Virus record (IMG/VR): IMGVR_UViG_3300032242_001655 | Location: 32,079 to 96,078 of that record | Direction: 5' to 3' (one strand) | DNA from: a virus | DNA: 64,000 nucleotides | Shown: positions 3,013 to 53,652 of the stretch, in pieces | Layout of the letters: each line of letters opens with the position of its first letter | How positions within the stretch are numbered: position 1 is the stretch's first letter | Notes under the pieces: model-generated | What the model saw: only the letters and a program-made list of their open reading frames with translations | Told to the model about the DNA's origin: nothing | Database searches by the model: none | Program-made: the position numbers and the translations under genes

Positions 3013-3073
3013 ATAAATTGTCTGTTAAGCATCTTGGCATAGCCATGTTAGCAGTAATTGGGCGATGATTCTC

Positions 3074-3102
3074 TTGACAGATTCGTCAACGGTTAGTAAA
3101 AT
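3074..3102 (+). promoter_or_regulatory. sigma70-type promoter of the tmRNA
   Basis: TTGACA-N17-TAAAAT. Confidence 0.8.
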
Positions 3103-3108
3103 GTAAGT

Positions 3109-3360
3109 TATTGCTGTATGAAGCAAAGAGAAAAGTGTTCTGGACGCGAGTTCGAATCTCGCCATCTCCACCTAAATGTATTAAGGTATATTTAGGTGGG
3201 GATGAAAATGGTTTCGACAGGGCAACAAGTAATGGCGTGGACAGCAGAGTAGGCGATGACTCTAAATCAAGCAAAAAACGTAAATGCAAACGACGAACAG
3301 TTCGCTTTAGCCGCCTAAACTCGGCTTAGGGTAGGAAATACCTCGTAACAGAAATAACCA
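3109..3360 (+). ncRNA. ssrA: circularly permuted (two-piece) tmRNA, tag ANDEQFALAA
   Basis: T-arm plus CATCTCC-A-CC (3143-3172) lies upstream of the 5' end GGGGATG...TTTCGAC (3198); G3.U70 pair; tag ORF 3286-3318; outer ends approximate. Confidence 0.93.
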
Positions 3361-3380
3361 GGGGCTACGGCCCCTTTCTT
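3361..3380 (+). terminator. intrinsic terminator after the tmRNA
   Basis: GGGGC-tacg-GCCCC followed by TTTCTT. Confidence 0.75.
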
Positions 3381-3406
3381 ATCAGTTTTAAAAAGGATGA
3401 TTAAAA

Positions 3407-4324
3407 ATGGCAACAACAGTAACAATTGGGCAGACCCCAATTAACGCAACATATTCCCTAGTAGGGGGTGCAACAAATGGTGCAGGCGCTCAGGCAAAAT
3501 TCACTGTACAAAAAACAAATGGTGTATATGTAACCACCCTCGATTCAACTAATGGCGGTACAGGATATGCTCTTGGTGATACAGTTACCATTCCGGGCAC
3601 AAGCCTTGGTGGAACAGCCCCAGCCAATAACGATGTTATTATCGTTACTGGACTTGGTACAAATGGCGCAATTAAAACATTCGCCACAGCAGGTGTAGGT
3701 GCAATTGGTAATGGAACTATTAATACAGTTATTAATGTTACTCCAGATGTAGTTGCTCCAATTAACACATATGTTATGGGCGACAAAAGCGCCAACTTTA
3801 CAGTAGTTAACGATACAGCAAACAATGTTATCAGAGAAACCAGTGCTTTAAATTCTACTGTGAGTTTTAACCTAAATAACTACCAGCGTGTGGTATATAC
3901 AGATAAAGCAACCGCTTTTGATATTTCTGGTAAAGCAGGCGATGTTTATTCATTGCTTAAAGCAAGTTTTGGCGGAACGGTTAATACTACATACGAAGGT
4001 ATCGGTATTAAATTGGAAGATGCTGGCACAACCAGCGCACAAGTTGCTCAAGCAATTGTAACTAGTGCTCCATTCTTAACAGCAAATCCAGATATTCCTA
4101 CTTTTGTGAACAATCTGTATACCAATGTTATGGGAGTGGCTCCAACTCCAACTCAGGCAAGTCCGTATATTACTTCCTTAGTAACAGGTGGAACAACAAT
4201 GGGGGCTTTACTAAATGCGGCCGCTCATCTTACCACATATCAACAAACAATTGGTTTGGTAGGTGTTGCTCCAGCAACAACAGGCGTATTAGCCGGTTCA
4301 GGAATTGACTACATTCCAGCCTAA
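3407..4324 (+). CDS. Thr/Gly-rich surface or S-layer-like protein with a C-terminal DUF4214-like domain
   Basis: AFDISGKAGDVYSLLKASFG...FVNNLYTNVMGVAP pattern; RBS AAGGA. Confidence 0.65.
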   Translation: MATTVTIGQTPINATYSLVGGATNGAGAQAKFTVQKTNGVYVTTLDSTNGGTGYALGDTVTIPGTSLGGTAPANNDVIIVTGLGTNGAIKTFATAGVGAIGNGTINTVINVTPDVVAPINTYVMGDKSANFTVVNDTANNVIRETSALNSTVSFNLNNYQRVVYTDKATAFDISGKAGDVYSLLKASFGGTVNTTYEGIGIKLEDAGTTSAQVAQAIVTSAPFLTANPDIPTFVNNLYTNVMGVAPTPTQASPYITSLVTGGTTMGALLNAAAHLTTYQQTIGLVGVAPATTGVLAGSGIDYIPA

Positions 4325-30534: not shown

Positions 30535-31181
30535 TTAACTACTCTTTCCAAATAAATTTTGGCAAGTTCTAAACGTTTTTCAAGTGAAGTACCGGGCCAA
30601 TGAATAAGCCAATCACCATGTTGCCATGTGCCGTCTGTACCTAAACAGTCAAACTTGCTTTGATGTGGATATAGACTGTTTTGGTAAGCGTTCAAATATC
30701 GCTGTGGAACAATTTTAATCTTACCCGCATTTTCTTCTAAGAATACAGAGTCGATCATAGCCTGTTGCTCATAAAAGTAATGATTAGCATATTGATCAAC
30801 AACTTCTGTAATGCTTTTCATGTAAGCACGACCCCATTCGGAATTTTTAATTAAGAAACTGTCGTTGTTGATTTCATTACAGTCTGTGGCCAAGATCAAA
30901 TCATATTCTGGAATGATCTTGTCTTCAATTTTAATGGTATGATTTGTAATCATAGCATCTGTACCAGTCCACCAAAACCATTCAATGTCTTGACGTTCTG
31001 TCATTAGATCTAGCATCCAGAAGATTTTTTCAAATCCAATCGGAATGCCACCTTTGAGTTTGTCTGTTTTTAGGATACCTTCGTATCCGTGTCGGTCACA
31101 ATAAATCTGTTTGTTCTGTGTCCAAGTCATATCTGCTAGGGGTTGATACTTTGCATCGTTTAGGCTAATAACTGCGTACAT
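30531..31181 (-). CDS. GT34/GMA12-MNN10-like glycosyltransferase
   Basis: NKQIYCDRHGY, WWTGTDAMITN, YEQQAM and GDWLIHWPG. Confidence 0.8.
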   Translation of the reverse strand: MYAVISLNDAKYQPLADMTWTQNKQIYCDRHGYEGILKTDKLKGGIPIGFEKIFWMLDLMTERQDIEWFWWTGTDAMITNHTIKIEDKIIPEYDLILATDCNEINNDSFLIKNSEWGRAYMKSITEVVDQYANHYFYEQQAMIDSVFLEENAGKIKIVPQRYLNAYQNSLYPHQSKFDCLGTDGTWQHGDWLIHWPGTSLEKRLELAKIYLERVVK

Positions 31182-31238
31182 GAGTTCCTCTTTAATTTGT
31201 TTTATTTACTACGTATATAATGGGTACTAAATATTTTT

Positions 31239-31727
31239 ATGTTCTATAAACTTAATTGTAAGATCGATCCAGAAAAATTCCTATTGTATGAAGAGGAACA
31301 TCGTAAAAATTGGTTCCTTGACTTTGGGTTCGATACTATGCTAATGCCTCAGAAGATTTTAGAAGATCATACTTTAATGGATGTTATCAAAAAATTTCGA
31401 GGACAGGTTGTGATGTTGCGAATGCCCGAATGGCATTTTTACAATTTCCATGTTGATACAAAAAGACGTTGTGCTATAAATTCACTAGTAACAGGATACG
31501 ATAGCAATTCCTATTTTGGTAGTGATGTATACAAAAACGAAAAGTTGATACACGAGTTAGAAAAAATAGAACCGTTAAATTATACCTTAGGCTCTTGTTA
31601 TGTATTCAACACTAAGCATAGACATGGTGTTGTAAATCGAGCAAATATTAGGTTGACACTTAGCATAGGTTTCTATAATAATAGTTACGAAGAGGTGTTA
31701 GCCTACTGTCAACAAAGAGATTTATAA
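31239..31727 (+). CDS. putative 2OG-Fe(II)/cupin-fold protein
   Basis: FHVD...HGV.N...RLTLS (HxD...H...RxS-like). Confidence 0.55.
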   Translation: MFYKLNCKIDPEKFLLYEEEHRKNWFLDFGFDTMLMPQKILEDHTLMDVIKKFRGQVVMLRMPEWHFYNFHVDTKRRCAINSLVTGYDSNSYFGSDVYKNEKLIHELEKIEPLNYTLGSCYVFNTKHRHGVVNRANIRLTLSIGFYNNSYEEVLAYCQQRDL

Positions 31728-31752
31728 TGTGGCAAAAAAGCCACAGATCAGG

Positions 31753-31781
31753 TTGACAACGAGACTAAATAAACGTACAAT
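31753..31781 (+). promoter_or_regulatory. sigma70 promoter of the leader/tRNA operon
   Basis: TTGACA-N17-TACAAT. Confidence 0.8.
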
Positions 31782-31806
31782 AATACTTTAAGGAAAGTAA
31801 ACGCAA

Positions 31807-31935
31807 ATGAAAAACTGTTCGATACATTATTATACAAAGGCCAAACAGGCAGGCTTTATGCCCTCTGTATGGTTTGCGTCAAGTAATGATCGTACACAAG
31901 AGATTTGCCAGGGGTCCAAGGAGACCATAGTGTAA
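31807..31935 (+). CDS. putative attenuator leader peptide (42 aa)
   Basis: MKNCSIHYYTKAKQAGFMPSVWFASSNDRTQEICQGSKETIV; AAGGA upstream; overlaps the antiterminator arm. Confidence 0.6.
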   Translation: MKNCSIHYYTKAKQAGFMPSVWFASSNDRTQEICQGSKETIV

Positions 31936-31990
31936 AGAAACACTAACTAACTCCAAAGGACCCCAGGATTAAAAACCCTGGGGTTTTTTA
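31908..31990 (+). terminator. attenuator with a mutually exclusive antiterminator and terminator
   Basis: Terminator ACCCCAGG(31960)/CCTGGGGT plus T6; antiterminator GGGGTCC..GGAG(31911-23) pairing CTCC..GGACCCC(31951-64). Confidence 0.7.
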
Positions 31991-32005
31991 TTACTTGAAA
32001 GAATT

Positions 32006-32170
32006 ATGAACGAAACAGAAAAGAAATTTAAAAGAGAAGCCGATTGGTTTGCCGCACACTCAATGACCAAGCAAGAAGTTGAAAAACTCATTGCCGAAAA
32101 GATGGCTCGTGCGTTAGCATACCTAGAGGCTCAAAACAAGCAGTCAATGGTTCCTAAAGAGATCCAATAA
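32006..32170 (+). CDS. small hypothetical protein (54 aa)
   Basis: Read by eye; first ORF after the attenuator. Confidence 0.5.
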   Translation: MNETEKKFKREADWFAAHSMTKQEVEKLIAEKMARALAYLEAQNKQSMVPKEIQ

Positions 32171-32174
32171 TCTG

Positions 32175-32392
32175 CGAAGTGCTATAGGAAACGAGGTCCT
32201 TGTATCACTCTAAACTACTAAACGGGCGGCCTACGGGATGAAGTTCCTTTTGTGGAATGAAAAATCGTAGCGTATTAAAGTGTTCTTCATTCACCCTGCA
32301 CAGGTGTCTAAAAGCATAGCGGAGAGCATTTTAATACACACTCTCTACTTCACTCGACTGGAAGGACACGGCACGTAGTGCTGAGAGTGTTA
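32175..32392 (+). ncRNA. candidate structured RNA ahead of the first tRNA
   Basis: Stems 32231-35/32266-70, 32272-86/32323-37 and 32338-45/32383-90. Confidence 0.4.
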
Positions 32393-32400
32393 TCTATTTT

Positions 32401-32490
32401 GGAGCCTGTTCCCTACGGCGGACTGTAAATCCGTTGCCATAATTTTGTAGGGTGGCTGGCAGTTAGGTTCAATTCCTTCAGGCTCCACCA
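32401..32490 (+). tRNA. tRNA-Tyr(GTA), atypical, with no canonical D-arm
   Basis: GGAGCCTG/CAGGCTCC-A-CCA; anticodon loop CTGTAAA; T-loop TTCAATT. Confidence 0.75.
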
Positions 32491-32495
32491 ATTTA

Positions 32496-32570
32496 GGTCT
32501 CAAAGTGTTCATGGACGCACACGAGCCTGTCACGCTCGAAGAAGGGGATCGTTACCCCTTGGGACCGCCA
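32496..32570 (+). tRNA. tRNA-Asp(GTC)
   Basis: Cloverleaf, loop CTGTCAC, non-canonical T-loop ATCGTTA, CCA. Confidence 0.85.
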
Positions 32571-32576
32571 AATTAT

Positions 32577-32651
32577 TCCCTAGTAGATCAGAGGTAGATC
32601 AGCGGACTGTTAATCCGTGTGTCGGTGGTTCGATCCCACCCTGGGGAGCCA
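32577..32651 (+). tRNA. tRNA-Asn(GTT)
   Basis: Cloverleaf, loop CTGTTAA, CCA. Confidence 0.92.
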
Positions 32652-32656
32652 AACAT

Positions 32657-32731
32657 GGGCTGTTAGTGATAATGGGAGCACGGGGGCTTTGCAAGCCTTA
32701 GGTGGGAGTTCGATCCTCCCACGGTCCACCA
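32657..32731 (+). tRNA. tRNA-Ala(TGC)
   Basis: Cloverleaf, G3.U70, CCA. Confidence 0.92.
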
Positions 32732-32736
32732 AGTTT

Positions 32737-32811
32737 GCCGAGGTAGCTCAGAGGAAGAGCAATGTGTTGATAACGCATAGGTCGAGATTTCAAAATTCTC
32801 CCTCGGTACCA
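32737..32811 (+). tRNA. tRNA-Ile(GAT)
   Basis: Cloverleaf, loop TTGATAA, CCA. Confidence 0.88.
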
Positions 32812-32815
32812 GTTT

Positions 32816-32892
32816 GGGACGGTAACTCAGTTGGCTAGAGTATCGGTCTTTTAAACCGAGAGTCGCGGGTTCGAATCCCGCTCGTCCTACCA
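32816..32892 (+). tRNA. tRNA-Lys(TTT)
   Basis: Cloverleaf, loop CTTTTAA, CCA. Confidence 0.93.
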
Positions 32893-32900
32893 ATGTTTGT

Positions 32901-32974
32901 TGGCTTATGGTGAAATGGTATCACAACGGATTTTGATTCCGTCGTTCTTGGTTCGATCCCAAGTAGGCCTGCCA
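32901..32974 (+). tRNA. tRNA-Gln(TTG)
   Basis: Cloverleaf, unpaired 1:72, loop TTTTGAT, CCA. Confidence 0.9.
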
Positions 32975-33118
32975 ATTAGTTAGAGTAAATGTATTTTCTA
33001 CCGTAGGATAAGATTCTAGAAATTCTTTAGAAGTAGTCCAAGAAGTTCTTGGAACATAGGAAGATTTGCTGAGATTATACAACATTTTGTATTCAGTATA
33101 GTCATCTTCAAATTTCAT
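32921..33118 (-). CDS. possible small antisense ORF within the tRNA array
   Basis: TAAATA-N5-ATG at its start; 3' end runs antisense into tRNA-Gln. Confidence 0.35.
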   Translation of the reverse strand: MKFEDDYTEYKMLYNLSKSSYVPRTSWTTSKEFLESYPTVENTFTLTNWQAYLGSNQERRNQNPL

Positions 33119-33130
33119 AATAATATTTAT

Positions 33131-33205
33131 GGTAATGTAGCATAATGGAAGTGCCCCGCCTTCATACGGCGTCCAGTGTAGGTTCGACTCCTACCATTAC
33201 CACCA
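33131..33205 (+). tRNA. tRNA(CAT), either elongator Met or Ile2
   Basis: Cloverleaf, paired 1:72, loop TTCATAC, CCA. Confidence 0.85.
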
Positions 33206-33206
33206 T

Positions 33207-33295
33207 GGAGGGTTATCTGGGCTGGGCCCAGCTCTGTCTTGAAAACAGAAGGTTCGCGAAAGCGGATAGAGTTCGATTCTACTAGCCCTCCTCCA
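33207..33295 (+). tRNA. tRNA-Ser(TGA), atypical 6-bp D-stem
   Basis: Loop CTTGAAA, long variable arm, CCA. Confidence 0.8.
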
Positions 33296-33315
33296 TATAT
33301 ACATTAAATATCCAG

Positions 33316-33927
33316 ATGCAATATTGGTTATTTTTCTGGGGCGGTACAGGTGGTGATGGACTTAGCAATCTGCTAGAACATGCTGACAATCTAGAACCCT
33401 GTGATGGAATAAAACGATGGCGTACTAGAAATACTCCATCAGGTAAGATTGCGTTCCATGGGCCTAGGTTTTCTAACGTACCATCACTGTTTAGAAATCA
33501 TCAAGGATTTGATATGAGCAAAATTCATTTGCTCAAGCACTATGTAGATTTAATAGAACAAGGAAAGAATACAGTTATTCCTGCACATCCGTGGCCTTAT
33601 AATGATTTTCTTTCTAAGTTTCCACAAAGAGATATCATTGAAAAAGATCAACACAAAATTCTGTTATACTCAAATGATATGGATAGAATAGTTACAGACT
33701 TTATAGATAAGAATCCTACTAGTGAAAAGGCCAAACAAGAATTAATTAGATCAATTGCTGGGAAAAATGTCCTTAAGGATTCGCCTAAATTAGGATATCA
33801 AACATACATTGATATGGATAAAGTTTGGAAAGATTGGGATTACCTAAATAACATCCTAACTGGTATAGGAATTAATTTAGATAGAGTGTATTATGAAGAA
33901 TACTTAAATGTATCAAAGAAAAGATAA
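33316..33927 (+). CDS. hypothetical protein (sulfotransferase/P-loop-like N-terminus)
   Basis: FWGGTGGDGLSNLL; ORF between tRNAs. Confidence 0.6.
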   Translation: MQYWLFFWGGTGGDGLSNLLEHADNLEPCDGIKRWRTRNTPSGKIAFHGPRFSNVPSLFRNHQGFDMSKIHLLKHYVDLIEQGKNTVIPAHPWPYNDFLSKFPQRDIIEKDQHKILLYSNDMDRIVTDFIDKNPTSEKAKQELIRSIAGKNVLKDSPKLGYQTYIDMDKVWKDWDYLNNILTGIGINLDRVYYEEYLNVSKKR

Positions 33928-33928
33928 A

Positions 33929-34018
33929 GGAGCGGTGGCCGAACGGTAAGGCAGTAGATTGCTAATCTATACAACGTGTTAAAGCGTTGACTGGGTTCGA
34001 CTCCCAGTCGCTCCGCCA
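33929..34018 (+). tRNA. tRNA-Ser(GCT)
   Basis: Class II cloverleaf, CCA. Confidence 0.92.
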
Positions 34019-34023
34019 AATTA

Positions 34024-34097
34024 GCCCTATTAGTACAATGGCAGTACAGCGGTTTTGTAATCCGTTGATGGCAGTTCGATTCTGTCATGGGGCACCA
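34024..34097 (+). tRNA. tRNA-Thr(TGT)
   Basis: Cloverleaf, loop TTTGTAA, CCA. Confidence 0.9.
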
Positions 34098-34101
34098 ATT
34101 T

Positions 34102-34175
34102 ACCTCGTTCGTCTAATGGTAGGGCCGCGCCTTTACACGGCGCAGACGGCAGTTCGATTCTGTCACGAGGTACCA
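34102..34175 (+). tRNA. tRNA-Val(TAC)
   Basis: Cloverleaf, loop TTTACAC, CCA. Confidence 0.9.
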
Positions 34176-34189
34176 TAGACTGTTTAGGT

Positions 34190-34264
34190 GTGACCTTAGT
34201 GTTAGCGGTTAGCACCACGGATTGTGATTCCGTTAGGATGGATTCGAATTCCATAGGTCACCCC
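34190..34264 (+). tRNA. tRNA-His(GTG)
   Basis: GTGACCT/AGGTCAC, C73, loop TTGTGAT; position -1 is T; CCA not fully encoded. Confidence 0.85.
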
Positions 34265-34289
34265 TGAGCAGTTTTGTAAATAGAATTAA

Positions 34290-34366
34290 CGGTGTGTAGC
34301 TCAGCCTGGTAGAGCTCTTGGTTTGGGACCAAGTGGTCGCATGTTCGAATCGTGTCACACCGACCA
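34290..34366 (+). tRNA. tRNA-Pro(TGG)
   Basis: Cloverleaf, loop TTTGGGA, CCA. Confidence 0.93.
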
Positions 34367-34380
34367 TATAAAGGAATATT

Positions 34381-34653
34381 ATGTCAAAAGTAAGAGCAAG
34401 CCATATTTTAGTCATGTCATTAAATGAAGCAGTTAACATCCATGAACAAATTTCAAATGGTGTTAGTTTTGAAACATTGGCTCAACAAAATAGTAAGTGC
34501 CCTAGCGGACGCAATGGCGGAGACCTAGGCGAGTTTGGACGCGGACAAATGGTTAAGCCATTTGAAGATGCCGCATTTGGGTTAAATGTAGGAAGTCTCA
34601 GTGACCCAATCAAAACACAATTTGGGTATCACCTCATCAAGCGTACTGCCTAA
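34381..34653 (+). CDS. ppiC: parvulin-type peptidyl-prolyl cis-trans isomerase
   Basis: RASHILV, SKCPSGRNGGDLGEFGRGQMVKPFE and TQFGYHLI. Confidence 0.95.
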   Translation: MSKVRASHILVMSLNEAVNIHEQISNGVSFETLAQQNSKCPSGRNGGDLGEFGRGQMVKPFEDAAFGLNVGSLSDPIKTQFGYHLIKRTA

Positions 34654-34654
34654 C

Positions 34655-35659
34655 ATGTTAAACTACACCTTACACGAAAACGGTTGGACGGTGTTGTTAG
34701 GTAACTTTGATTTTAAAAATACTACACAACAAGATGCAGATGAAATTGCTCGACTAGTTTCTACCAATGTAGCAGTTGTAGCACAGGGTAGTAATATTGA
34801 AAATATGACTCCAGAAGATCAGGTTCGGTTCTGCTCAATGATAGGTAACCTTGAAGAATATCATAATGACACAGCATGGGGTCGTGCTATTGCTCTAAGT
34901 ACTGATAACATCGGAAATAAGATCCAACGTGTTACAGGTGCGGCAAATGAAGAAGGACATCCTGGTTTATTTGGACATGACGAAGAATTAGATTGGCACA
35001 ATAATACTCCCTGGGACATGAGACGCAAGCCCGCTGTATTTTTAAAATCAATCAGCGGAGCAGAAGGTAGTAGAACAAGTTGGACTAACACACAGTTGGC
35101 TTACCGTGATCTTAAACTTGAAGACCCTGCATTTGTTCAAGAATTAGAAGAACAGAATTATCGTGTAGTTTGTGGTTGGCACAAAGAAGGTGGTCATACA
35201 ACAATGTATAACTACTGGCATGATCAGGGACATTTTCCAGATGAAGTAGAATCTGAAGAAACTGCTATGCCATTGGTCTTTACTAATGAAACAGGTTGTA
35301 AAGGATTTTTCTTACCATATCTACAAGCACATAGATTATTCGGCTTGACAAGAGAAGAAAGTTTGCCTATACTTAAACGAGTATGGGATTATTGCTTACA
35401 AGAAAAATACATTTATCATCATGATTGGCTACCCGGGGGTAGCGAGATAGTGTTTGCCGAGCAATGGCTATCTACACATAAGCGTTGGGAGTTTGATAAA
35501 ATGAAAACTCGTTTTATGGAAAGATCAGCAGTTGACTATGTAAACACTTCATGGTGGCCAGATGTAAAGAAAACATTTAGAAAACAGATAACAGACATAA
35601 TAAGACAGAATAATGTAGAGATGGCAGAGCGGCAAATGCAACGGATTGCAAATCCGTAA
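34655..35659 (+). CDS. TauD/TfdA-family Fe(II)/2OG dioxygenase-like protein
   Basis: ELDWHNN, GSRTSW, YHHDW...HKRW; 3' end overlaps tRNA-Cys. Confidence 0.7.
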   Translation: MLNYTLHENGWTVLLGNFDFKNTTQQDADEIARLVSTNVAVVAQGSNIENMTPEDQVRFCSMIGNLEEYHNDTAWGRAIALSTDNIGNKIQRVTGAANEEGHPGLFGHDEELDWHNNTPWDMRRKPAVFLKSISGAEGSRTSWTNTQLAYRDLKLEDPAFVQELEEQNYRVVCGWHKEGGHTTMYNYWHDQGHFPDEVESEETAMPLVFTNETGCKGFFLPYLQAHRLFGLTREESLPILKRVWDYCLQEKYIYHHDWLPGGSEIVFAEQWLSTHKRWEFDKMKTRFMERSAVDYVNTSWWPDVKKTFRKQITDIIRQNNVEMAERQMQRIANP

Positions 35660-36525: not shown

Positions 36526-36614
36526 GCAGGTCGTGGCAGAGTGGTCAAATGCGCCCGGTCGTAAATCGGGTGACCTTTAAGGTCTACGGAGGTTCGAATC
36601 CCCCATCTGCTCCA
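36526..36614 (+). tRNA. degenerate class II tRNA, Tyr(GTA)-like
   Basis: Loop TCGTAAA (C33), long variable arm, irregular acceptor/T stems, CCA. Confidence 0.55.
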
Positions 36615-37685: not shown

Positions 37686-38150
37686 ATGCCAAAATGTTAT
37701 CAATTAGTCGGAGTTCCCGGCAGTGGAAAATCTACATGGGCTAATAGTCAAGAATGGTTTCTTGAATGTGACTGCATATCTACAGATAAGTTCGTGGACG
37801 CTTATGCTCATGATACTGGTAGAACTTACTCAGAAGTGTTTGACGAAATTATGCCAAAGGCTGTTGACTTGATGGCAAAAGAAGTTGTTGTTGCACAAAA
37901 AGCAGGACGAGATATAATTTGGGATCAAACATCGACTACAATTGCTAGCCGTAAAAAGAAGTTTAATATGTTGCCCGATTATGAACATATTGCTGTGGTA
38001 TTCAAAACACCAGATCATGAGGAACTAGTGCGTAGATTAAAAGGCCGAATAGGCAAAGTTATTCCTTGGGAAGTCATAGAAAGTATGATTAAGAATTTTG
38101 AAATGCCCACAGAACAAGAAGGGTTTAAGGAGATCTGGTTTACTGGTTGA
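37686..38150 (+). CDS. P-loop kinase (AAA_33, polynucleotide-kinase-like)
   Basis: GVPGSGKSTW, ISTD, IIWDQT and P...EGF. Confidence 0.85.
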   Translation: MPKCYQLVGVPGSGKSTWANSQEWFLECDCISTDKFVDAYAHDTGRTYSEVFDEIMPKAVDLMAKEVVVAQKAGRDIIWDQTSTTIASRKKKFNMLPDYEHIAVVFKTPDHEELVRRLKGRIGKVIPWEVIESMIKNFEMPTEQEGFKEIWFTG

Positions 38151-38201
38151 CAAAGTGGTAAATTTTTGTTATAATAGTATTTTAAATGAAAGGAGCGAAC
38201 T

Positions 38202-38804
38202 ATGCCAAGCGTATTTTTAGTAAGCGACACGCACTTTGGTCATGCTGGTGTATGTCACTTCACACACGAGAACACAGGAGTTAAAATCCGTCCATGGACT
38301 GATCCAGATGAAATGGATGAGGCTATGGTAAAATTGTGGAATGACCGTGTCAAGCCAACTGACAAAGTCTACCATTTAGGAGATGTTGTCATTAACCGTA
38401 AGGCATTAAAAATAATGTCAAGATTAAATGGTGACAAAGTGTTAATTCGTGGCAACCATGATATCTTCAAAGACGAGGACTACAGACAATACTTTCGTGA
38501 ATTACGTGCCTACCACGTTATGAACGGAATGATATTAAGTCATATTCCAGTTCATGCAGATAGTTTAGGTCGCTTTGGAGTTAACATTCACGGTCACTTA
38601 CACACTCGCCGTGTTAAAAAAGCAAGAGGCGTTGATGCTCGTACAGGAGAAGTCTTATACAGCGATGAGCCCGATGTTAGATATCACTGCGTATGTGTAG
38701 AGCAAACAGACTTTGCCCCAATTTTATTCGAAGACGTTATCCGTCGTATCGAAGCAGAAGGTGGTGTAGTTGGATTTCAAAAGGGAAACGGGCCTACAAT
38801 GTAG
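38202..38804 (+). CDS. calcineurin-like phosphoesterase (phage type)
   Basis: SDTHFGH, HLGD, GNHD, SHIP and HGHLH. Confidence 0.9.
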   Translation: MPSVFLVSDTHFGHAGVCHFTHENTGVKIRPWTDPDEMDEAMVKLWNDRVKPTDKVYHLGDVVINRKALKIMSRLNGDKVLIRGNHDIFKDEDYRQYFRELRAYHVMNGMILSHIPVHADSLGRFGVNIHGHLHTRRVKKARGVDARTGEVLYSDEPDVRYHCVCVEQTDFAPILFEDVIRRIEAEGGVVGFQKGNGPTM

Positions 38805-38816: not shown

Positions 38817-39061
38817 AAGTAGGGAACTTAAAACGCAAAAAGTGTGCCGAAAGGGTTTTGGATGCAGGCCGGAAGCCAGTATCTGGATAGTGTTGTAAAC
38901 ACTCGCATCGGTTGAAGCAACGGGTCAACAGACTGGCTGTTGTGGAGTGATCCGTGAGCGTTCCATGTTTCCTGGACAAGAGAGAGCGGGGGCTGTTGTC
39001 TCCGGGCGGGCAAGGATATCACTTTCGTGGACCAAAACTCTCATAAGTTCCCTACTTAAAA
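38813..39061 (+). ncRNA. candidate GC-rich structured RNA bounded by a perfect 18-bp inverted repeat
   Basis: TTTTAAGTAGGGAACTTA ... TAAGTTCCCTACTTAAAA; several nested stems. Confidence 0.55.
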
Positions 39062-39682
39062 TGTATAGTTAATATCAAATTCGTAGCGTTCACGAGGTGA
39101 GGTTTGAGGATCAAGGTATCCGCATTTATCAAATGCCCATGCTCTTTCTTTGCAGTGCCAACATTCGTCACACACCTTATCATCCGGTGTTTCGCATGAA
39201 TATGCAATTTTCATTAGGTCAATAAGATCACAATCAATGGCTTCTTGTACTATATAGTCTTTGGTTAATTCTATCCATGGCTGAGCATATCTAGCCAATT
39301 TCATTGATTGCCGTCTTGGTCCTATTTCTATTTCTTTTGGATTTTTAGTATCGCCTAATACAAATACTTCTATATCATCATCGGAGGCTTCTCTCAATCC
39401 GCTTATTACCTGTAGGGTATGATGGACTTTATCTGTGCCTACTTTATTAATAGTATAACTGATTCCAAACTTGTCATTAATCCAATCCAATATATTCTGT
39501 GTACGAACTAGACTGTTGTTTGGACGATCCACTGTATATACTTTGAATTCATTGTTAGTTTTTAGTTCTTCTCTTAGAGCATGTACTAGATATATTAATA
39601 GGCCGCTATCTAAACCTCCGGAAACAAATAGTCCAATTTTCCTGTTATTTTGTAGTATTTTTTTGATTGGCTCTCTTATCAT
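39056..39682 (-). CDS. QueC-like PP-loop ATPase
   Basis: VSGGLDS and C-terminal SCE.....CDECWHCKER zinc motif. Confidence 0.75.
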   Translation of the reverse strand: MIREPIKKILQNNRKIGLFVSGGLDSGLLIYLVHALREELKTNNEFKVYTVDRPNNSLVRTQNILDWINDKFGISYTINKVGTDKVHHTLQVISGLREASDDDIEVFVLGDTKNPKEIEIGPRRQSMKLARYAQPWIELTKDYIVQEAIDCDLIDLMKIAYSCETPDDKVCDECWHCKERAWAFDKCGYLDPQTSPRERYEFDINYTF

Positions 39683-39702
39683 AAAAATATTTAACCTTCT
39701 AG

Positions 39703-39731
39703 TTGACAGCACTGGTTTTTTCATGTATAAT
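39703..39731 (+). promoter_or_regulatory. consensus sigma70 promoter (probably leaderless transcript)
   Basis: TTGACA-N17-TATAAT; ATG 6 nt downstream. Confidence 0.75.
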
Positions 39732-39737
39732 AAAAAC

Positions 39738-39980
39738 ATGAAGAAATTAGTTGCTGTCATTTTTTTTGGACTGTTGGTCGGATGTTCCACTGTAACCAAT
39801 CAGCGGATACTGACTCCTTACGAAGTTAGTACCATACCAACCGATTGTCTTAATCAACGACAAATTATAAACTATTTAGAAAGCCAGGTGAAATTTGCAA
39901 ATGAAAACAACATCAAAGAAAACTTGGGAGTTGTCAAGTATAAACTTTGGGAAATTCGTACTTTGTGTAATGGCGGCTAG
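39738..39980 (+). CDS. lipoprotein
   Basis: MKKLVAVIFFGLLVGC lipobox. Confidence 0.7.
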   Translation: MKKLVAVIFFGLLVGCSTVTNQRILTPYEVSTIPTDCLNQRQIINYLESQVKFANENNIKENLGVVKYKLWEIRTLCNGG

Positions 39981-53556: not shown

Positions 53557-53652
53557 GTGGCTGTGAGTGGAATTGGAAGACCTCTGCCTAGGCAGGATGG
53601 GGCAAAGACATAGTCATTTGCTTTTGTAGGTTCGAAACCTACCAGCCATACC
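53557..53652 (+). ncRNA. tRNA-Leu-like RNA lacking an anticodon loop
   Basis: GTGGCTG/CAGCCAT-A-CC, Leu-type D-loop, perfect T-arm; anticodon arm is the palindrome CTGCCTAGGCAG; TGcTATAAT upstream. Confidence 0.65.

Follow-up and report, generated by a model that had tools for sequence, protein, structure and literature searches.

Can a gene that lacks a D hairpin encode a working tRNA, and if so, what would hold the core of its product together? The question is raised by a 90-nt gene in the window, the 64,000-nt stretch of DNA analyzed here, which comprises the last 64 kb of the 96-kb uncultured virus record IMGVR_UViG_3300032242_001655 (positions 32,079 to 96,078). Public sequencing runs place this virus in lakes and other fresh water. 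A preliminary description of the locus had read an 8-bp acceptor stem, A73, CCA, and a normal GTA anticodon arm, and had noted that CCCTAC is perfectly complementary to a downstream GTAGGG that is followed by TGG; upon rereading the sequence, we found each of these elements in its place. As had also been claimed, the gene is the first of a tRNA array, with the next tRNA gene (tRNA-Asp, called by ARAGORN) starting at 32496, five bases on. Judging from its sequence and those of its relatives, we propose that its product is probably a functional elongator tRNA-Tyr(GUA) whose core is rewired and does not form a cloverleaf. The parts of the gene are as follows:

32401 to 32490, + strand: whole gene, a probable non-cloverleaf tRNA-Tyr(GUA) of 90 nt with encoded CCA (110.7 bits with the family model R1)
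32401 to 32408, + strand: acceptor stem 5' strand GGAGCCTG, 8 nt, pairing with 32479 to 32486
32409 to 32410, + strand: TT connector, equivalent to positions 8 and 9 (T in 53 and 56 of 63 sequences, respectively)
32411 to 32416, + strand: CCCTAC, 5' strand of the long-range D-type helix, pairing with 32447 to 32452
32417, + strand: single unpaired G between the D-type helix and the anticodon stem, equivalent to position 26 (G in 47 of 63 sequences, always 1 nt)
32418 to 32434, + strand: anticodon arm GCGGA/CTGTAAA/TCCGT with a 5-bp stem and anticodon GTA at 32425 to 32427
32435 to 32439, + strand: variable-arm stem 5' strand TGCCA, pairing with 32457 to 32461
32440 to 32446, + strand: A/U-rich linker TAATTTT leading back to the core (with the 4-bp model stem as the starting point, 57 of 63 sequences have 7 to 8 nt)
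32447 to 32452, + strand: GTAGGG, 3' strand of the long-range D-type helix within the variable-arm loop, from covariation
32453 to 32455, + strand: TGG, candidate equivalent of G18G19 for a putative T-loop contact (GG is conserved after the helix)
32457 to 32461, + strand: variable-arm stem 3' strand TGGCA, from covariation
32464 to 32478, + strand: T arm with U.U plus an AGG/CCT stem and T loop TTCAATT
32479 to 32490, + strand: acceptor 3' strand CAGGCTCC at 32479 to 32486, A73 at 32487, and CCA at 32488 to 32490, from reading the sequence

The gene as seen by standard tools

Between the acceptor and anticodon stems of the window gene lie 9 nt (TT-CCCTAC-G), with no local D hairpin. GTAGGG is located inside a 17-nt loop closed by TGCCA/TGGCA, and the two D-type strands, 30 nt apart, enclose the anticodon arm. 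The T stem consists of three Watson-Crick pairs plus an outermost U.U, making four layers. A permuted gene or an intron-containing gene was considered and rejected as a reading of this layout, given that the acceptor ends and CCA are at the ends of the gene; moreover, we know of no bacterial mechanism that could excise a variable-loop strand.

Standard annotation passes over the gene. ARAGORN makes no call at 32401 to 32490, and the Rfam tRNA family (RF00005) gives no match to the gene even at E-values of up to 10. The sole Rfam family that aligns is tRNA-Sec, at 29.4 bits, below its threshold of 47, and that alignment skips the D arm. The pseudoknotted tRNA-Tyr fold proposed here is absent from Rfam 15.

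Folding of the single sequence carries no weight either way, with a minimum free energy (MFE) of -28.9 kcal/mol that is no better than that of shuffled sequences (z = -1.2). The long-range D-type helix is present in both the MFE and centroid folds of the window gene, while the variable stem is present in neither; each of the two helices is worth about 6 kcal/mol when evaluated as nested.

Two alternatives draw on these results. The first is that the gene is a decayed tRNA-Tyr pseudogene whose D arm was deleted and whose 6-bp complementarity is due to chance, for which one could cite its rejection by gene finders and a single-sequence fold that is not significant. The second is that the gene does encode a functional tRNA but one that is nested rather than knotted, in which CCCTAC/GTAGGG lengthens the anticodon arm with a bulge and the variable stem is an alternative or transient structure, giving a hairpin-type molecule like the armless mitochondrial tRNAs. 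The MFE and centroid folds, which contain the nested helix and lack the variable stem, agree with the second alternative. Relatives of the gene bear on both.

Relatives, covariation, and the shape of the core

To find relatives, IMG/VR was scanned for an anticodon arm and a T loop separated by an over-long gap, which yielded 27 loci with the same layout, and a second scan with a looser pattern yielded at least 120 loci. Both patterns fixed the anticodon loop (GUA) and the T loop, and invariance there is therefore no evidence. A covariance model, R1, was then built with the CCCTAC/GTAGGG helix deliberately left unpaired. From the two pattern scans and R1, at least 72 relatives were recovered, of which 63 are distinct, in uncultured phage contigs, the phage Lyrsu02, and bacterial tRNA arrays. 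R1 scores members at 58 to 111 bits, with one outlier at 43.8, and other tRNAs at no more than 39 bits. Within the window, the next match after the gene itself scores 29.9 bits.

The preliminary description had named covariation of CCCTAC/GTAGGG among homologues as one check, and the pairing passes it. In the R1 alignment of the 63 distinct sequences, which omits the helix, 97.9% of cells are paired, all six pairs change on both sides, and none of 500 shuffles reaches the covariation score, while registers slid along the same strands pair at 29 to 60%. A MAFFT alignment to which no structure was fitted gives a similar picture, with the helix paired in 21 of 21 distinct relatives and double-sided changes at five of the six pairs. 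The 63 sequences hold 27 distinct D-type helices (e.g., CCCAAC/GTTGGG, CTCTAC/GTAGAG, CATCAC/GTGATG, and CCGGTG/CATCGG). In 63 of 63 sequences, a GG dinucleotide lies no more than 4 nt past the relocated strand.

At 4 to 5 bp, the variable-arm stem begins where the anticodon stem ends, and its loop would be anchored in the core. The four inner pairs of the stem are 94.3% paired, and 4 of 4 show double changes, compared with 16 to 44% pairing in slid registers, with the limit that this alignment was fitted to the stem. An alignment-free test, which compares the mean helix length formed by a sequence's own strands with that formed across sequences, gives 4.68 versus 4.05; this separation is weak because TGCC/GGCA dominates. 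The same test finds at least four contiguous pairs in every sequence.

Among the remaining helices, the acceptor stem is 99.4% paired across the 63 sequences, and all eight of its pairs change on both sides; the eighth pair is formed in 63 of 63 (GC in 42, UG in 8, AU in 6, UA in 6, and CG in 1). The anticodon stem is 100% paired, with compensatory changes. In the T stem, two inner pairs are invariant G-C, and the fourth is G-C, G.U, or A-U in 34 of 63 sequences and U.U in the window. All T loops read TTCRANT, as the search patterns imposed. Members are 86 to 94 nt long, and the lengths of their linkers are tightly constrained.

In bacteria, the identity set by which tyrosyl-tRNA synthetase (TyrRS) recognizes tRNA-Tyr consists of A73, G34-U35-A36, a long variable arm, and G1-C72. 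The window gene has A73 and GUA, the latter being required by the search patterns. Among the distinct members, A73 is found in 63 of 63 and G1-C72 in 61 of 63, and at least 50 of 63 encode the complete CCA. Two members (L091, positions 1427 to 1513, and L053, positions 3442 to 3530) have C1-G72 in place of G1-C72, the archaeal and eukaryotic type of first pair in tRNA-Tyr, and do not encode CCA. Amber versions (anticodon CTA) were sought as well: among the matches listed, none of 118 long-gap CTCTAAA candidates has the fold, GUA being the only anticodon found with it, and the strong model matches in the loci of these candidates are further GUA members.

The helices, their covariation, and the conserved identity marks are thus observations, and they weigh on the two alternatives to different degrees. 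Decay had been named beforehand as the outcome that would undo the preliminary description, with pairing that is neither conserved nor covarying; covariation excludes it, as far as computation can. Chance complementarity in a pseudogene does not account for 63 distinct relatives with compensatory changes in every helix, nor for a gene that takes the tyrosine slot of tRNA arrays and is found both in bacteria and in phages that differ widely in G+C content. We consider that explanation exceedingly improbable. The nested alternative keeps somewhat more ground, given that the alignment behind the variable stem was itself fitted to that stem and that the alignment-free test separates weakly. It sits poorly with a variable stem that shows double changes at every inner pair, far exceeds its slid registers, and retains at least four contiguous pairs in every sequence, and the conserved GG and fixed short linkers would suit a compact core better than a rod. 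A functional but nested tRNA is therefore improbable in our judgment.

For the knotted reading, the alignments support a D-type helix that would join the connector following the acceptor stem to a strand that lies in the loop of the variable arm and is followed by a GG resembling G18G19. The preliminary description had proposed that the D stem was rebuilt by a pseudoknot with the variable arm and that its 3' strand and loop had been moved there. The pseudoknot stands, on the covariation of both helices and the universal GG, but the direction of the move is probably the reverse. Because CCCTAC is continuous, by way of G32417, with the 5' side of the anticodon stem, the part that moved would be the 5' D strand with its loop. 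CCCTAC would then take the place in space of the canonical 3' D strand plus position 26, and GTAGGG-TGG would be the 5' D strand followed by a D loop reduced to GG.

The resulting fold would be an H-type pseudoknot with the anticodon hairpin in its first loop. Its 6-bp helix is predicted to stack on the anticodon stem by way of the continuous strand CCCTAC-G-GCGGA, and its six pairs would stand in for the usual D stem of 4 bp together with two overlying tertiary layers, an arrangement also found with the 6-bp D stem of tRNA-Sec. Beyond the helix, the GG could reach the T loop and close the elbow. The 8 acceptor pairs and 4 T pairs would preserve the usual 12-layer stack that is read by EF-Tu and RNase P.

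How this fold relates to known tRNAs can be stated for three groups. Canonical class II tRNA-Tyr(GUA) (RF00005; e.g., E. coli tyrT/tyrU and the tRNA-Tyr of phages T5 and T6) shares with it GUA in a CUGUAAA loop, A73, G1-C72, an encoded CCA, a T loop of the form TTCRANT, and membership in arrays, and the paired variable arm would be a further common feature. The canonical type differs in having a D hairpin, no pseudoknotted D-type helix, and a 7/5 rather than an 8/4 division of acceptor and T pairs.

The second group is that of tRNA-Sec and the (8/4) allo-tRNAs, tRNA-Ser, and tRNA-His (PMC5389517), in which an 8-bp acceptor stem is likewise combined with a T stem of 4 bp, and a very short segment containing GG comes after a 6-bp D-type helix. 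Six D-stem pairs replace the 4-bp D stem and two tertiary layers in tRNA-Sec and in (8/4) allo-tRNAs (PMC5389517, PMC7609411). In this group, however, the 6-bp D stem is a local hairpin and the cloverleaf is kept, whereas here the helix is long range and would be knotted with the variable stem, and the identity would be that of Tyr rather than Ser, Sec, or His. Mukai et al. (2017) describe no such pseudoknotted fold (PMC5389517). The array that starts with the gene at 32401 to 32490 also holds, at 33207 to 33291 (+ strand), a Sec-like tRNA-Ser(UGA) that reads UCA, matches RF01852 at 48.3 bits against a threshold of 47, and is missed by ARAGORN. With its 6-bp D stem, small loop, and long acceptor stem, it looks like the (8/4)-type phage tRNA-Ser of Mukai et al. 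(PMC5389517).

Third, the D-armless mitochondrial tRNAs of nematodes and mites (e.g., Ascaris suum mt-tRNA-Ser; PMC7609411) also lack a D hairpin and are also presumed to be functional. Those organellar tRNAs are miniaturized to 50 to 60 nt, have a connector that is flexible, and rely on partner proteins adapted to them; the present family, in contrast, has 86 to 94 nt, a helix replaced in trans, and a normal T arm, and it would have to work with ordinary bacterial enzymes.

Carriers and the tyrosine slot of tRNA arrays

The phage contigs that carry members have G+C contents of 44 to 73% and sizes between a few kilobases and over 500 kb. One carrier has been cultured: the 47-kb Pseudomonas syringae phage Lyrsu02 (PP179324.1; locus L144) holds an unannotated member at 601 to 688 that scores 70.2 bits. 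It adjoins a tRNA-Pro gene, the only tRNA gene beside it, and the terminase genes, with the small terminase gene next. Lyrsu01 and Lyrsu03 carry a member too. The Lyrsu carriers were found by blastn of a high-G+C member (L068) against GenBank phages, the sole query to find cultured carriers; blastn of the window gene and of another member (L102), as well as megablast of window positions 31000 to 35000, gave no match to GenBank phages.

Among the bacterial loci, the first 100 were searched with the model, and 10 hold members. At least eight of these ten are from metagenome-assembled genomes, assigned to Planctomycetaceae, Planctomycetota, Alphaproteobacteria, and Bacteroidota. All but one of the members adjoin further tRNA genes, with 7 to 34 called at each locus, and ARAGORN calls no tRNA-Tyr gene in any of these loci. 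Four of the arrays hold 20 to 34 genes; these loci (L220, L225, L168, and L172, which include the Planctomycetaceae and Planctomycetota) are dense, with all of the genes in 8 kb or less, and two of them are on contigs of 285 kb and 2.3 Mb. The idea that the fold serves as the only tRNA-Tyr of these bacteria was rejected in five of five genomes checked (including L220, L225, and L168). Because an ordinary tRNA-Tyr gene is located elsewhere in each, the fold belongs to an accessory array in these five genomes.

In 22 of 24 large tRNA arrays, the pseudoknotted gene occupies the Tyr slot. ARAGORN calls none of 73 members. In the 24 loci with at least 15 called tRNAs, a set selected for holding a member, Tyr is called in 2, while each of the other 19 amino acids is called in 18 to 24 loci (75 to 100%). 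Tyr alone is missing from the calls in arrays of 37, 36, and 27 tRNAs. At the other extreme, in about a fifth of the member loci the gene is alone or accompanied by one or two tRNAs.

The two loci in which Tyr is called are the window itself and a near-identical relative, L014, and both carry a second gene with a GUA anticodon:

36526 to 36614, + strand: class II cloverleaf with a GUA anticodon, called tRNA-Tyr by ARAGORN; its tyrosine identity is doubtful

This second gene scores 26.3 bits with the Rfam tRNA model, against a threshold of 29; it carries C33 and U73 and is mismatched in both the acceptor stem and the T stem. In the L014 copy, the loop is different and the anticodon stem carries compensatory changes, which argues that the RNA is maintained. 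By sequence, therefore, the pseudoknotted gene appears to have the better set of tyrosine identity marks of the two genes in the window. With the second GUA gene present, it may not be the sole tyrosine tRNA of the window.

Expression of the window gene was considered from its surroundings and from public RNA data. Upstream of the array is a promoter-like site:

31753 to 31781, + strand: TTGACA-17-TACAAT, agreeing with 11 of 12 consensus positions, a consensus match only

The leader between 32171 and 32400 folds with z = -1.1, which gives no support for a structured element there. In two lake metatranscriptomes, contigs of X16 cover 32396 to 32493, and one contig of X18 covers 32400 to 32430; RNA library X17 has nothing over the gene. 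The X16 and X18 sequences come from relatives (90 to 99% alike), are contigs rather than reads, and could derive from DNA; they are a weak hint that the gene at 32401 to 32490 is transcribed.

Several other features of the window concern tRNA biology. The tRNA-Asp(GTC) called by ARAGORN directly downstream (32496 to 32570, + strand) has no Rfam tRNA match at E-values of up to 10, and its T loop is ATCGTTA instead of TTCRANT. The 96-nt "tRNA-Ala(GGC)" called by ARAGORN at 53557 to 53652 (+ strand) fails to match the Rfam tRNA family at the gathering threshold and may be another aberrant tRNA-like gene. Directly after the array, 37686 to 38804 (+ strand) encodes a P-loop kinase (AAA_33; polynucleotide kinase in PHROG) and a metallophosphoesterase (phrog_547), which may form a tRNA repair pair. 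A PP-loop protein encoded at 39056 to 39799 (- strand) has a weak match, at 26 bits, to QueC of the 7-deazaguanine/queuosine pathway. Queuosine is placed at G34 of the tRNAs for Tyr, His, Asn, and Asp, and phage QueC homologues often serve DNA modification. Finally, at 3060 to 3409 (+ strand), the phage carries a permuted, two-piece tmRNA of the betaproteobacterial type with the tag ANDEQFALAA, and this type hints at a freshwater betaproteobacterial host.

Function, immune nucleases, and wider meaning

If the gene acts as an elongator tRNA, as we favor, host TyrRS would charge its product by way of A73, G1-C72, the GUA anticodon, and the variable arm, and the ribosome would presumably use it in the ordinary manner. 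The main rival to this reading is a role as a tRNA-like decoy or sponge that binds a nuclease aimed at tRNA-Tyr, a modification enzyme, or TyrRS, without serving the ribosome. In favor of a decoy, the fold is unusual, the window has a second GUA gene, and the member loci with no or few other tRNAs, that of Lyrsu02 among them, resemble dedicated anti-defense cargo. Yet a decoy would have no need for an invariant A73, encoded CCA, a 12-pair stack, and canonical anticodon and T loops all together, and near-complete arrays of 27 to 37 tRNAs with no other Tyr gene are hard to explain if the gene does not decode. We therefore regard a decoy as unlikely, though it is the competitor that deserves the most attention, and continue with the functional tRNA.

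Why should tyrosine have acquired such a fold? Known immune systems offer a lead. The PtuAB effector of retron-Eco7 degrades tRNA-Tyr, from which phage T5 escapes by supplying a tRNA-Tyr itself (PMC11555353). In E. coli tRNA-Tyr, the cleavage site of Septu is C48/A49, in the stem of the variable arm; the tRNA-Tyr of T5 is reported to be resistant through its distinctive variable loop, and that of T6 also acts against Septu (PMC13096335). The preliminary description had suggested, in general terms, that a rewired tRNA might evade defenses that target tRNAs, and this suggestion becomes more concrete because the known defenses cut the variable arm of tRNA-Tyr.

The members described here and the T5 and T6 tRNAs are alike in being phage borne and in differing from the host tRNA in the variable arm, where Septu cuts (PMC11555353, PMC13096335). 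They differ in that the T5 and T6 tRNA-Tyr molecules are cloverleaves that act by dosage or by a variant variable loop, whereas here the topology of the whole core would be changed. The selective reason for the fold may have been escape from nucleases that cut the variable arm of tRNA-Tyr, and we hypothesize that a tyrosine-specific fold whose variable loop is tied into the core fits escape from the Septu and retron-Eco7 nucleases. In its fullest form, the idea is that phages and bacterial arrays hold a natural, pseudoknotted, tyrosine-specific fold that works with ordinary TyrRS, EF-Tu, RNase P, and ribosomes and that arose since its buried variable-arm loop could not be cut by Septu/PtuAB and retron-Eco7. 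We offer this complete account tentatively, as a possibility that we are inclined to doubt more than to believe.

Except in animal mitochondria, the cloverleaf is regarded as a universal feature of tRNAs. A 2024 paper describes all known bacterial tRNAs as cloverleaves (PMC11551756), and no description of a pseudoknotted tRNA-Tyr fold was found in the literature searched in full text. A widespread and conserved pseudoknotted tRNA-Tyr would be a natural counterexample, which would indicate that the L shape can be reached by another chain topology. It would expose a blind spot of ARAGORN and Rfam and would account for the large phage and bacterial tRNA arrays in which tyrosine alone appears to be missing. 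It could also serve as a new scaffold for the design of orthogonal tRNAs. The cultured carrier Lyrsu02 opens the fold to experiment, and with a tyrosine-specific fold that would remodel the very arm cut by Septu and retron-Eco7, the family may provide a testable case of immune nucleases driving the evolution of tRNA architecture itself.
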